Positions 54,030 through 60,851 of a stretch of DNA of 64,000 nt are shown in pieces. The stretch lies in the IMG/VR virus record IMGVR_UViG_2850808358_000005. One strand, 5' to 3'. The notes under the pieces were generated by a model that worked only from the letters and a program-made list of their open reading frames with translations, made no database searches and was not told the origin of the DNA. Position 1 is the first letter of the stretch. The number at the start of each line of letters is the position of its first letter. Made by a program: the position numbers and the translations under genes. The stretch comes from a virus (Duplodnaviria; Heunggongvirae; Uroviricota; Caudoviricetes).

Positions 54030-54587
54030 TTAAAGCTGCATCAGCCTTTCCACCAGTTTATCTCTGCGAACAACAAACCAACCATTGGCTCTCGCCAGTT
54101 CCAGCCATGACTCAAGGGAAATAACAATATCATCATCCCGCAACTGAATTGTGGAAACAGTGACACCGCCTTGCTGATAACAGAGAACTCGCGTGTCGTA
54201 ACTTTTCTGGCATGAAACTGGCGTTGACGGCTCCTTTTGACTGAAATAGCAGTCTTCCAGTTTTTCGAACACATCCCACGCCTGATCGGTTTCGAGCATT
54301 TTTGCGTGGCGGGCTGCGCCGCGTTCTGTCCAGAGAATGAGGGAGCGGGTTTTGGGAGAGATGGGATTTTGTGAGTAGTTTAAAGCTACCCGCAATTCTT
54401 TAAGGTCATTACCAACAACTTTGAAAAAGTGTTTCCCTTCAACGAAGCGTACTTTGTTCTCATAATGATTCTGGCGAATACGCACCGGCTCAGTGCCGTA
54501 AAGCTGCGCCAAAAGTTCGGTGGTAATAACAGGAATCTGGTTATAGGTAACAGGGGAAAGGTTTTTGACAGAAATCTGAACAGTCAT
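54030..54587 (-). CDS. ORF6N/KilA-N-like phage protein (antirepressor-like)
   Basis: N-terminal NQIPVITTELLAQLYGTEPVRIRQNH; paralog of 57299..57847; inserted between Q and tR' in prophage 2 only. Confidence 0.4.
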   Translation of the reverse strand: MTVQISVKNLSPVTYNQIPVITTELLAQLYGTEPVRIRQNHYENKVRFVEGKHFFKVVGNDLKELRVALNYSQNPISPKTRSLILWTERGAARHAKMLETDQAWDVFEKLEDCYFSQKEPSTPVSCQKSYDTRVLCYQQGGVTVSTIQLRDDDIVISLESWLELARANGWFVVRRDKLVERLMQL

Positions 54588-57298: not shown

Positions 57299-57847
57299 TT
57301 AAAGCTCCATTAATTTTCCGGCAAGTTCATCTCGCGGCATTACCAGCCATCCGCGCGATTTAAGCAACATCAGGGCTTCTTCAACCGTCACCAGCTGACC
57401 AGGCGCATAACTTCGGATGAAGGCAGTTTTATCATCACGGATCGCCAGGTGAATATCGATGTTCATTTTCCCCGTAGCCCGATCTTTCTCGTACTGGTTG
57501 AAGTAGCAGTCTTCCAATTTTTCGAATACTTCCCACGCCTGATCGGTTTCGAGCATTTTGGCGTGACGTGCTGCTCCGCGTTCTGTCCAGAGAATGAGGG
57601 AGCGAACGTTACGGGCAATTTTCACAGACTCGCTTAAAGATAGTCTGTGCTTCATACCTCTAAGCTCATCGCCCACTAACTTATAAAAATGCTTACCTTC
57701 AATAAAACGTTCAGCGTTTCTGGCGTGATTTTGCTGAATGCGAATCGCTTCTGTGCCGTACAACTGCGCCAAAAGTTCAGTGGTAATAACAGGTATCTGG
57801 TTATGGGCGATCGGGGAGAGAGTTTCAACAGAGATTTGAGTGGTCAT
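57299..57847 (-). CDS. ORF6N/KilA-N-like phage protein (antirepressor-like)
   Basis: Start placed at MTTQISVETLSPIAHNQIPVITTELLAQLYGTE (track ORF extends to 57979). Confidence 0.4.
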   Translation of the reverse strand: MTTQISVETLSPIAHNQIPVITTELLAQLYGTEAIRIQQNHARNAERFIEGKHFYKLVGDELRGMKHRLSLSESVKIARNVRSLILWTERGAARHAKMLETDQAWEVFEKLEDCYFNQYEKDRATGKMNIDIHLAIRDDKTAFIRSYAPGQLVTVEEALMLLKSRGWLVMPRDELAGKLMEL

Positions 57848-58174
57848 AACGATAACTCCGTACATTTGGAAATTATCGCCACCGACGACGCCAATCGAAC
57901 TGGTGGCGAACTGTGCAGGGTTGGCGTAACCGGGTACGGAAACCGGCGAGCCTTTCGGCTCCCCCACACAGCCCGCCATAAATCGCGAATGTGACTGTGC
58001 AAACGATATGAAAAAAGACGCGGACGCGTCTCATATCGCTCCGTAAACATCCGGGACGCCAATCCCGACGCCAGATTTTGCTGGCGCGTGAGGAATATAG
58101 CCCCGGATTAACGTTGTCGTCAACAGCCACTACAGGCTAAACTAACAATATTCCCCAACAACGAAGGATTTAAC

Positions 58175-58462
58175 ATGGCTCAGGTCTATTTTGATACACT
58201 GAAGTTCGTCGAAACCTTGGAAGCCGCAGGAATGCCGGCAGCTCAGGCGCGCGCTATATCTGCCGCAGTGAAAGATTCTCACGAAGCCGCAGAAGTCGCC
58301 ACAAAGCGCGACCTAAATGATGTCAGAACTGAACTAAAAAACGACATTGCAGCCCTTGATGCAAAAATAGACAAACTCAGCCTGCAACTGACCGTCAGAT
58401 TTGGTGGCATGCTCGTCGTTGCTGTTGGCGCACTGACAGCCATCATCAAATTACCTCTTTAA
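58175..58462 (+). CDS. coiled-coil small membrane protein (DUF1640-like)
   Basis: MAQVYFDTLKFVETLEAAGMPAAQA... with C-terminal hydrophobic segment; family call from memory. Confidence 0.35.
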   Translation: MAQVYFDTLKFVETLEAAGMPAAQARAISAAVKDSHEAAEVATKRDLNDVRTELKNDIAALDAKIDKLSLQLTVRFGGMLVVAVGALTAIIKLPL

Positions 58463-58571
58463 ATTACCAGCCCGTTCGGGGCTGGTTTACCTTACCCCCA
58501 GCGGCAAATCGAATACACAACCAGCGCCACCGCCATTGCAATTCCTACCGTGGTGAATGCTTCAGGCCAGG

Positions 58572-59090
58572 TCATCGTAAAACATCCTCCACGCTTATCA
58601 GTCCATTTCGCTTCAGGTAATCCATCGCCTTCTCCGGTAATTTGCAGTCAGGCTTAGCTTTTTTCAGTTGACTGACCAGTCGTTTAACCCACATTGTTAA
58701 TTCGCTAACCTGATTACTGGATGCTAGTAGGTTGTCGGCTTTACCCAGAATGACAGCACAGCAAGCCTCTTTGAGTACCCAGTCAACAGCGTCTTTCCAT
58801 GCTCCTGTTTCGACTGGTGGATTCTCACGCTTTACCTGTTCATAAAAGCGCACGGCTTTAACCAGTCCTTCTGATGTCACCTGGACTGGCGGGGCAGTGA
58901 ATAAGGCCTGAATTTCATAGTTCGGCCTGTCGTTACAATCCTCTTTTTTCGGTACATATTTCCAGTCACCAGACCACCACTTCCCCTGAAAGTCCGTAAC
59001 GCCTTTTTTTTTCACGTAGCGATATCGCCATGCCACTGTTTTTGCTTGCCCCGCCGTTTCATGCCCTTCCTGATAATTAATCTCGCTCAT
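58572..59090 (-). CDS. hypothetical protein (third gene of a small-gene operon)
   Basis: 172-aa ORF; ATGA overlap with the upstream small gene. Confidence 0.35.
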   Translation of the reverse strand: MSEINYQEGHETAGQAKTVAWRYRYVKKKGVTDFQGKWWSGDWKYVPKKEDCNDRPNYEIQALFTAPPVQVTSEGLVKAVRFYEQVKRENPPVETGAWKDAVDWVLKEACCAVILGKADNLLASSNQVSELTMWVKRLVSQLKKAKPDCKLPEKAMDYLKRNGLISVEDVLR

Positions 59091-59263
59091 TCATCGCCCC
59101 ACTCATCACAATATGCTTCGACCGGAGTTTTTCCTGCTTCATAATCATCACGCCATGCTTCAGCATCAGCAGCACTGCCACCACGTAACTCTGCATAGTC
59201 CATTAACAGTTCATGCCATTCTTCAAAACTGACGTTGTATTTAGTTGAACCAAAATCAGCCAT
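59087..59263 (-). CDS. small acidic protein, hypothetical
   Basis: 58-aa ORF MADFGSTKYNVSFEEWHELLMDYAELRGG...CDEWGDE found by manual translation; below the track size cutoff. Confidence 0.35.
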   Translation of the reverse strand: MADFGSTKYNVSFEEWHELLMDYAELRGGSAADAEAWRDDYEAGKTPVEAYCDEWGDE

Positions 59264-59438
59264 TTTGTTCTTCCTCTTCGTCTTTTATTTCGTGATATGA
59301 GTAATTGCAGTAGTTAAAGAAAATATCTTTTGCTTCGTCATGTATTTCATCAGGCGTCGCATCATCATCCACTTCGAATTCATCCTCGAAATCTCCACCG
59401 GCTATTCCCGTTTCAATAATAATTTTGAACTTTCGCAT
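59256..59438 (-). CDS. small highly acidic protein, hypothetical
   Basis: 60 aa from MRKFKIIIETGIAGGDFEDEFEVDDDATPDEIHDE...; about one third Asp/Glu. Confidence 0.35.
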   Translation of the reverse strand: MRKFKIIIETGIAGGDFEDEFEVDDDATPDEIHDEAKDIFFNYCNYSYHEIKDEEEEQNG

Positions 59439-59484
59439 TTCACTACCGCCCTTTCGGGCCTGAGGGATCCCCACAAAATTACTG

Positions 59485-59989
59485 CTAATAAACCAGCACC
59501 ATATTTCGGTAGGTTCTGGACAGATGGTTTAGAACTGTGCTCAGTACTGTTCGTCTTAAAATAAGTGGCGAGTGTCGAAGAACATTCTTCGCTAACGTCA
59601 GATATGAGATAACCCGCCGGGATTTAATGCTGTTAGCCTGATATTTCAGGTGTAACCCTTTATTTTCAGCGTGATAACCGAGTAACCACATTACGATAGT
59701 GCTCAACGTTGCCAGCAGACTCAGAACCAGAATTCTTCCTGTTGAACGACTTTTGCTGGCCCGAAGACCAAATCCGAAGCGCCCGTTCTTTTCATCACGA
59801 AAGTTTTGCTCTATCTGCATTCACCGACTGTATAACTTGATGATTTCTCGCGCTCTGAAGTCATTTGTACTGCTGAAGATCAACCAGGCTTCTTTTGCTG
59901 ATTTGCTCTGTTCTTTGTCTGTTTTGTTTAAACCACTCTGACCTTTCGAACGTTTCTTTTTTCGCCCTTTTGCCGATTTCTTATAGGTG
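59485..59989 (-). pseudogene. IS10-like (IS4-family) transposase gene fragment, C-terminal ~155 codons with internal stop
   Basis: YKKSAKGRKKK...SAKEAWL...YSR*MQIEQNFRDEK...GFGLR parallels IS10 transposase (YKSRSKGRKNQ...SAKEPWIL...SKRMQIEETFRDLK...GLGLR); in-frame TGA at 59821..59823; N-terminal part absent from the window. Confidence 0.55.
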
Positions 59990-60032
59990 TGAGGTGTACT
60001 GGCAATAGCGGACACTACCATTTGTTCTTTTT

Positions 60033-60851
60033 TTAAGCAGCCATCTGATGATATTTTTCCCTGAAGGCTGCCGGGGAGATATTCCCCAGACGAGAGTGAC
60101 GACGCTGACGATTGTAGAAAATCTCAATGTATTCCCGTATTACTGAGATGGCTTCATCCCGGTTATTAAAACGATAGTGGCTCAGGCTCTCATTTTTCAG
60201 CGTTCCCCAGAAGCTTTCCATCGGAGCGTTGTCGTAACAGTTACCTTTACGCGACATTGATGTTTTCAGACCAAACTGCTCCTGTATGACCCGGTAATCG
60301 TATGCGCAGTACTGTGAACCTCGATCAGAGTGGTGGATTAGCCCGGCAGGTGGGCGCTGGCTCCTGAGCGCCATAAACAGGGCTTTACCTGTCAGCTCTT
60401 TTGTCATGCGCGCTCCCATGGCGTAGCCGACAATTTCGCACGTATAAACATCTTTGATGCCAGCGAGGTACAACCATCCCTCCTGTGTGGCAACATACGT
60501 CAGGTCCGCCACCCAGACCTGATTTGGTGCTGTAGGAGCGAACGTCTGGTTCAGCAGATTTGGCGCAACTGGCAGATTGTGGTTCGGGTTCGTAGTCGCT
60601 CTGAACTTGCGTTTCTGCTTACAGCGTAGCCTTAGCTCCTTACGAAGACGTGCCAGTCGGTCACGACCAACGATGATGCCATTCTCTGCCAGCTCCGTCT
60701 GGAGCCGCCGGGTTCCATATGTTTCGCGAGTGCGGATATGTGCCACCTTAATCTCCAGTTTTAGCCGCTCATCACTTTGTTTTCTGTCTGAGGGTTCATG
60801 CTGTACCCAGTTGTAATAACCGCTCCTGGATACACCAAATACCTGACACAT
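60033..60851 (-). CDS. IS600 transposase OrfB
   Basis: 272-aa ORF, near-identical to the other copies (one substitution, GARM versus GERM). Confidence 0.8.
   Translation of the reverse strand: MCQVFGVSRSGYYNWVQHEPSDRKQSDERLKLEIKVAHIRTRETYGTRRLQTELAENGIIVGRDRLARLRKELRLRCKQKRKFRATTNPNHNLPVAPNLLNQTFAPTAPNQVWVADLTYVATQEGWLYLAGIKDVYTCEIVGYAMGARMTKELTGKALFMALRSQRPPAGLIHHSDRGSQYCAYDYRVIQEQFGLKTSMSRKGNCYDNAPMESFWGTLKNESLSHYRFNNRDEAISVIREYIEIFYNRQRRHSRLGNISPAAFREKYHQMAA

Follow-up and report, generated by a model that had tools for sequence, protein, structure and literature searches.

A translationally coupled prophage cassette joins two unrelated families of small acidic proteins, one of which is also carried by conjugative plasmids

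Introduction

The DNA mimics Ocr (gp0.3 of phage T7) and ArdA block type I restriction enzymes. They are elongated, mostly helical dimers of very high negative charge density, expressed early from an incoming mobile element, and ArdA is found on conjugative plasmids. T7 Gp2 is an inhibitor of RNA polymerase. Its two conserved arginines near the third strand contact the beta' jaw of that enzyme, and the 55-residue lambda protein Orf55, encoded in the exo-xis region, has been modelled in a three-strand, one-helix class with similarity to p56, RNA polymerase epsilon and Gp2 (PMC8614690). Genes of the exo-xis/ea region influence lysogenisation (PMC7093339, PMC8614690). Here we describe a cassette of small minus-strand genes, named A to D, in a stretch of 64,000 nucleotides of viral DNA (Caudoviricetes; IMG/VR record IMGVR_UViG_2850808358_000005), hereafter called the window. 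The first two genes of this cassette, A and B, encode very small and very acidic proteins.

Proteins A and B resemble Ocr and ArdA in their very high negative charge density and in their early expression from an incoming mobile element, and B does so also in its presence on conjugative plasmids. They are, however, less than half the size of Ocr and ArdA and showed no homology to them in sequence and profile searches, and A is predicted to be an alpha/beta protein rather than an elongated helical dimer. A sequence-only reading of the window had put the two proteins forward as candidates for anti-restriction or anti-defence DNA mimicry. In this work we show that A and B are real genes under strong purifying selection, that they belong to two unrelated and independently mobile families, and that the cassette is a positional stack of accessory modules in a decayed prophage. 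We then weigh what the two proteins might do, and tentatively suggest that each inhibits a conserved host protein.

Results

Genes A and B encode exceptionally acidic proteins under strong purifying selection

The sequence-only reading described three overlapping minus-strand genes between positions 58572 and 59438, and both their coordinates and their overlaps were confirmed (Table 1). Genes A and B overlap by 8 nt (ATGGCTGA), and B and C by 4 nt (ATGA). The operon of three coupled genes proposed earlier is correct as far as it goes, a fourth coupled open reading frame (ORF), gene D, having been missed. The acidity reported for the first two products also holds, and it is exceptional. Protein A contains 20 Asp/Glu residues (33%; net charge -15, isoelectric point (pI) 4.05) and protein B contains 16 (28%; net charge -12, pI 4.05), and among 44 annotated small coding sequences in three related loci only the orthologues of A and B reach at least 25% Asp/Glu. 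Protein C has to be set apart from them, since it is not acidic but basic (pI 8.9, net charge +5).

The ratio of nonsynonymous to synonymous substitution rates (dN/dS) is 0.09 for A (28 alleles), 0.08 for B (26 alleles) and 0.29 for C, in which it rises to 0.64 over residues 1-45. A, B and C are therefore real genes, and A and B are under strong purifying selection. Gene B had been thought visible only through manual translation, but in relatives of the window it carries the RefSeq annotation WP_000753058.1, and A is annotated there with the identical 60-aa start. A longer version of A, starting at a GTG (72 aa, at 59474), was rejected because this codon lies within the ISSfl1 junction, upstream of position 59459, at which homology to prophage DNA starts.

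Gene D encodes a hydrophobic peptide, and its ATG is preceded by a GGAGGA Shine-Dalgarno sequence. The gene is intact in about 40 related loci, where its 20 DNA versions differ mainly at synonymous positions (dN/dS 0.19). D is probably a real small membrane protein that has been overlooked by RefSeq annotation.

Table 1. Positions of the cassette genes and neighbouring features in the window
Feature	Position	Strand	Description
Gene A (DUF7167 family, acidic)	59256-59438	minus	60 aa; ORF and composition
Gene B (acidic, no Pfam entry)	59087-59263	minus	58 aa; ORF and composition
Gene C (basic mosaic protein, phrog_660)	58572-59090	minus	172 aa
A9 homopolymer in gene C	59004-59012	minus	codons 27-29; length-variable tract
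Gene D (27-aa hydrophobic peptide MTWPEAFTTVGIAMAVALVVYSICRWG)	58492-58575	minus	ORF; start overlaps the stop of C by ATGA
GC-rich hairpin	58466-58486	none	8 bp; between the cassette end and a convergent plus-strand gene
ISSfl1 (IS4-family) transposase fragment	59465-59990	minus	99.8% identity to "IS4-like element ISSfl1 family transposase"; abuts A
IS600 orfB	60033-60851		
DUF1187 gene	61615-61836	plus	
xis	61928-62146	plus	
Integrase, frameshifted	62191-63266	plus	two ORFs

Protein B represents a family shared by temperate phages, virulent phages and conjugative plasmids

Sequence and profile searches with B gave no match in Pfam, NCBIfam or PADLOC and no relative in the PDB. An exhaustive hidden Markov model search of 1.84 billion proteins recovered 69 representatives of a B family at E <= 1e-3, nearly all of which are stand-alone proteins of 50-65 aa, and a comparison of 38 family members with Pfam returned nothing apart from neighbouring domains. 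The family is characterised by the motif F-E-E-W...L..A...GGS..D..AW..DY.AGKTP.EA..DEWG. In the alignment, W37 is invariant and W16, Y41 and G44 are nearly so. The mean net charge of the family is -8.7 over about 55 residues, with 12 positions that are 60-84% Asp/Glu, and this acidity is kept down to about 35% identity. The spacing of hydrophobic residues is what three short helices around an aromatic core would give, and B is probably a bundle of this kind whose exposed faces are acidic. Two long proteins, P0271 (4322 aa) and P0298 (1488 aa), gave 7-9 short matches each to positions 22-34 and 32-47 of the B profile; acidic repeats with a biased composition, and not homology, are the probable cause.

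Of 5426 complete E. coli genomes, 1750 contain the A-B pair (coverage of at least 80%), with up to 4 copies per genome, and the pair is already annotated there as "DUF7167 family protein" followed by "hypothetical protein". B is also found without A in a wide range of elements. It directly follows an Ead_Ea22 gene in Enterobacter prophages, usually just before xis/int, and the replication gene A (gpA) in P2-like phages. Virulent Ackermannviridae contribute about 170 records, among them orf183 of CBA120, and in this family B is located behind the capsid genes. Plasmids account for 554 records, 516 of them conjugative. In IncI2 (mcr-1) plasmids an 88% identical copy of B forms part of the backbone, where the genes run CaiF/GrlA regulator, DUF1187, B, SPFH and NfeD. 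The IncI2 homologue (WP_000753050.1) is situated near repA and about 15.6 kb from mobC and the relaxase gene, on the side away from both. The DUF1187 and B genes of these plasmids overlap by 8 nt (NZ_CP025679.1, 32120-32504), the same length as the overlap of A and B in the window. A DUF1187 gene (E = 2.5e-36) is present in the window as well, in the other arm of the prophage. More distant copies of B are found on IncT (Rts1-like) plasmids and on MOBH plasmids of Klebsiella, within long arrays made up of small ORFs. In short, an acidic protein of about 55 residues with a probable aromatic core is common to temperate phages (lambdoid and P2-like), to virulent phages (Ackermannviridae) and to conjugative plasmids of several families.

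Protein A is a full-length member of the DUF7167 family

Residues 2-53 of A align with positions 1-60 of the 60-position Pfam profile DUF7167 (PF23768; E = 7.9e-15, 55.1 bits against a cutoff of 24.4 bits), which makes A a full-length member of this family; it also falls in PHROG 1997 (phrog_1997). Nothing separates A from these families as described, and its E. coli orthologues carry the RefSeq name "DUF7167 family protein" already. The DUF7167 match was the sole real one obtained when A, B and C were searched against PADLOC, Pfam, NCBIfam and the PDB. Weak matches of the three proteins to AnkX_ins, Cmr5, a DnaI chain (E = 0.022) and uL23 (E = 0.02) were treated as noise.

An AlphaFold2 model of A (predicted local distance difference test (pLDDT) score 78) places strands at residues 2-10 and 15-23, a helix at residues 29-39 and a third strand at residues 45-51, ahead of an acidic tail. 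A is thus modelled as a compact beta-beta-alpha-beta domain of about 50 residues with an acidic C-terminal extension. The predicted combination of three strands and one helix recalls the class modelled for Orf55, a resemblance in kind and not in family membership. When A was compared with lambda Orf55, hhalign gave a probability of 0.1%, so that homology was rejected, and A has no Pfam or PDB sequence match to T7 Gp2. Moreover, Gp2 possesses two conserved arginines near strand 3, whereas the region of the predicted third strand of A (CNYSYHEIKDEE) contains no Arg.

Beyond the lambdoid prophages of E. coli, relatives of A (37-70% identity) occur without B in a Klebsiella prophage, in Klebsiella Guernseyvirinae, in Enterococcus Brockvirinae and in Phapecoctavirus. 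In the Guernseyvirinae the homologue overlaps the start of a 454-aa exonuclease gene, within a module composed of helicase-primase, exonuclease, gp2.5-like single-stranded DNA-binding protein and DNA polymerase genes, and in the Brockvirinae it overlaps the end of a 180-aa exonuclease gene. An overlap between DUF7167 and exonuclease genes is thereby seen in two unrelated groups of virulent phages (L101, 4001-4171; L102, 4001-4168; L103, 4001-4171). A rule that A always adjoins an exonuclease was nevertheless rejected, as it fails in the Klebsiella prophage, in Phapecoctavirus and in a related Pseudomonas phage, the homologue lying amid small ORFs in the latter two. Species-representative genomes were also scanned for A with degenerate patterns, whose reach is limited to close relatives, and only two loci were found. 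The 3-kb contig JAIHTM010000290.1, binned as a Collinsella metagenome-assembled genome, contains a 98% identical A gene and looks like a misattributed E. coli prophage.

The cassette is a positional stack of independent modules

Gene A is adjacent to gene B in 83 of 84 close relatives from E. coli and Shigella, but this adjacency breaks down in other genera and in other elements. The third position is variable. In all 84 loci the gene coupled to B starts at -4, and its product is either of the C type (171 aa), of a 119-aa type, or an unrelated Ea22-like protein of 182-239 aa, with at least five unrelated mosaics taking this place after A and B. Gene C, a member of PHROG 660, is itself assembled from parts found elsewhere: its residues 1-116 occur alone as 119-aa proteins, and its residues from about 60 to 172 recur in proteins of 187-217 aa behind different N-terminal parts, which in some cases carry Ead_Ea22 (PF13935) or DUF551. 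The resemblance to Ead/Ea22-like proteins extends to the same mosaic, recombining behaviour and to position, the slot of C being filled in the Stx2a phage ArgO145 by an annotated ead/Ea22-like protein, which is likewise coupled. C has no Pfam match at E <= 1, and hence none to PF13935, and a PDB sequence search gave no match to the solved C-terminal domain of lambda Ea22. The AlphaFold2 model of C is of low confidence (pLDDT 51.6; a score of 70 is exceeded in residues 18-64 only), and a Foldseek search with this model returned nothing below E = 1.

A homopolymeric tract within C varies in length among relatives. It is A6, in frame and encoding 171 aa, at 35 loci, and A8, which shifts the frame and leaves an 85-aa product, at 33-34 loci; A9 is found only in the window, where it is in frame and adds one Lys. 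Slippage that switches the gene on and off could explain this variation, as could decay with a later reversion or an artefact of sequencing. Because C is frameshifted in 33-34 of the 84 sampled loci (about 40%), while A and B are intact, and is swapped for other mosaics elsewhere, it is dispensable. C is a weakly constrained mosaic of the Ead/Ea22 type and D a small membrane peptide that travels with the C-terminal module of C, and neither is needed for A or B.

The locus is, then, a positional stack of independent accessory modules, A, B, C and D, that are translationally coupled. The overlaps bear out the coupling described in the sequence-only reading, but a functional trio is contradicted by the separate occurrence of A and B and by the interchangeable, often frameshifted C. 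Likewise, comparative genomics of this slot supports the view of A and B as early-operon genes of mobile elements, but not that they are kept together.

In the window the cassette survives without its promoter in a decayed prophage

The cassette is derived from a Shigella lambdoid prophage of the Rac/Qin type, in which it belonged to the delayed-early right operon, and the closest homologue of C (99%) comes from S. dysenteriae. In intact relatives, namely that of E. coli THO-006, the record "Actinobacillus phage pPE4" and a Rac-type fragment, the cassette is part of the rightward early operon. It is preceded there by the DnaT-like O and P genes, or by ydaU/ydaV, and then by small genes (DUF1627, DUF977/lygF), and it is followed by hokD, by DUF968 or DUF1367, and by a Q-like DUF1133 antiterminator gene; marker mapping over the 84 loci gave the same placement. 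The nin-region placement suggested earlier is thus right positionally. The equivalence to the lambda nin region and ren slot, that is, to the stretch of accessory genes that separates the replication genes from Q in the pR operon, is one of position only, and A to D have no match to the Nin (NinA-H), Ren or Rap/Orf families in Pfam or NCBIfam. In phage ArgO145 the A-B pair (97.7% DNA identity) is located instead in the leftward exo-xis/ea operon (pL). Over this region the pPE4 record ("Actinobacillus phage vB_Apl-pPE4", PP818812.1) shares about 91% identity with the DNA of E. coli lambdoid prophages, and it looks like misattributed E. coli prophage sequence.

In the window this organisation has been destroyed by insertion sequences (IS). 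The element next to A, taken at first for an IS10-like remnant, is in fact the ISSfl1 fragment, which contains an in-frame stop and is itself cut by IS600. Homology to prophage DNA restarts 21 nt before the ATG of A. The end of the pL arm, with DUF1187, xis and the split integrase gene, is now only about 2 kb from the accessory genes of the pR arm, the gap being bridged by ISSfl1 and IS600. The immunity, recombination and replication region has been lost and IS sequence stands in its place, so that the cassette is deprived of its native promoter pR and the prophage is defective. A promoter search upstream of the cassette found none above chance. The locus is accordingly ordinary, already catalogued prophage accessory DNA, now a promoterless remnant in a decayed prophage.

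On the other side of the cassette, the GC-rich hairpin (fold energy -15.6 kcal/mol, z-score -1.9) is a possible bidirectional terminator, and was not called by a consensus terminator scan. The flanking gene described earlier as DUF1640-like scores 29.8 bits, below the Pfam threshold of 33.5 bits, and matches over residues 6-35 only. The product of this convergent gene (58175-58462, plus strand; 95 aa) resembles DUF1640/CCDC90 below threshold in its N-terminal part and ends in a C-terminal part with a hydrophobic segment. Next to the gene is an ORF6N antirepressor gene (57299-57979, minus strand), the first 44 residues of whose product match Ash-family and regulator profiles and not the antirepressor PHROG; a second ORF6N gene is present at 54030-54587. 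The insert that contains the convergent gene and ORF6N is absent from the E. coli THO-006 relative.

Discussion

We propose, tentatively and as a possibility somewhat short of even, that A and B are each a stoichiometric inhibitor of a conserved host protein possessing a basic, nucleic-acid-binding surface. This proposal is based on the tiny size of the two proteins, the purifying selection on their genes, their conserved acidic surface, their position in early operons and their spread over mobile elements. Either protein, acting alone, would cover the basic surface of its target soon after the DNA of the element enters the cell or is induced. A and B would then be of the same functional kind as Gp2, p56, Gam, Ocr and ArdA while standing outside all of those families. 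The presence of the families in strictly virulent phages and on plasmids argues for a role at entry or during lytic growth that is directed against a conserved host factor. A more specific form of the proposal, that B and, independently, A with its DUF7167 relatives are unrecognised inhibitors shared across mobile elements that neutralise, on entry of foreign DNA, a DNA- or RNA-binding protein conserved in enterobacteria, be it a defence nuclease or a xenogeneic silencer, is doubtful.

Several considerations weigh against inhibition of a host protein. The genes in the window may not be expressed, the three-helix fold suggested for B is read from the alignment, and neither DUF7167 nor these sequences are mentioned in the papers and supplements searched, anti-defence papers included. 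In addition, small acidic proteins can partner proteins of the phage or plasmid itself, and A abuts exonucleases in two phage groups while B follows replication initiators. The main rival explanation, which we judge unlikely, is accordingly that A and B are accessory factors of the replication or recombination of their own element and modulate its exonuclease or initiator. The overlap of A with exonuclease genes in the Guernseyvirinae, within a replication module, and in the Brockvirinae would fit such a role, as would the location of B after gpA in P2-like phages, after O/P in lambdoid phages and near repA in IncI2 plasmids. What weakens this explanation is that neither gene keeps constant neighbours and that the replication systems concerned are mutually unrelated. 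A lies among unrelated small ORFs in Phapecoctavirus and the Klebsiella prophage; B lies after capsid genes in Ackermannviridae, before xis/int in Enterobacter and in the small-ORF arrays of IncT and MOBH plasmids; and theta-type O/P, rolling-circle gpA, RepA and T4-like systems have no common partner to offer. It is improbable, too, that A and B modulate the choice between lysis and lysogeny in the manner of the exo-xis/ea proteins Orf60a, Orf61, Orf63, Orf73 and Ea22. Their placement in exo-xis/ea regions beside Ead/Ea22-like genes in ArgO145, Stx2a phages and Enterobacter prophages suggests such an activity, but both families are found in strictly virulent phages and B in conjugative plasmids, where no lysogeny decision is made, and the searches revealed no sequence relation to the exo-xis proteins of lambda, which is absent from the tblastn matches of A and B, or, in the case of A, to Orf55.

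The version favoured by the sequence-only reading, in which A, B or both are DNA mimics of the Ocr/ArdA type that block type I restriction enzymes, has little probability. The very high and family-conserved negative charge expected of DNA mimics in general is present, at -15 over 60 aa in A, -12 over 58 aa in B and an average of -8.7 in the B family. Per residue, the charge of A amounts to about -0.25 and that of B to -0.21, and the charge density of Ocr is similar. The conservation of acidic positions in B, the early location of both genes and the occurrence of B, like ArdA, on conjugative plasmids agree with mimicry as well. The proteins have, however, no match to Ocr, ArdA, Gam, Ugi or similar proteins in sequence and profile searches of Pfam, NCBIfam and the PDB, with nothing for Ocr or ArdA at E <= 1 in Pfam and NCBIfam or at E <= 10 in the PDB. 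The resemblance anticipated in the earlier reading did not emerge from structure prediction either: the compact model of A is too small and of the wrong architecture for the elongated, mostly helical dimer of Ocr and ArdA, a verdict that applies to A only, and the conserved positions of B are chiefly aromatic core residues. Nor were restriction-related neighbours seen in the contexts of THO-006, pPE4, ArgO145, Enterobacter prophages, P2-like phages, Ackermannviridae or IncI2 plasmids. Of the earlier case for small acidic anti-defence candidates, then, the acidity, the early position and the purifying selection stand, and the tie to Ocr, ArdA or known mimics does not. Homology to proteins of known, unrelated function, which would have told against the earlier reading, was found for neither A nor B. 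A possible anti-restriction or anti-defence activity is suggested by charge, size, timing and distribution. Least credible of all is a single functional unit of A, B and C, such as a complex or a set of toxin-antitoxin type, with A and B neutralising the basic C. Tight coupling, the near-constant adjacency of A and B in close relatives and the opposite charges of A/B and C speak for such a unit, but overlaps of the ATGA type are the rule throughout these operons, and the loss of A-B adjacency elsewhere, together with an interchangeable and often broken C, makes a three-protein complex or toxin-antitoxin system unlikely. This possibility has been largely refuted already by distribution.

Inhibition of a host defence or nucleic-acid-binding protein by A or B, if it occurs, would add a very small and very widespread family to those known to act in counter-defence. 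As B is part of the backbone of IncI2 plasmids, which spread mcr-1, such an activity would also bear on how phages and resistance plasmids become established in new hosts. The main value of the cassette lies in two short and clearly delimited candidates that a functional screen could take up, of which B, and less clearly A, crosses from one type of mobile element to another.

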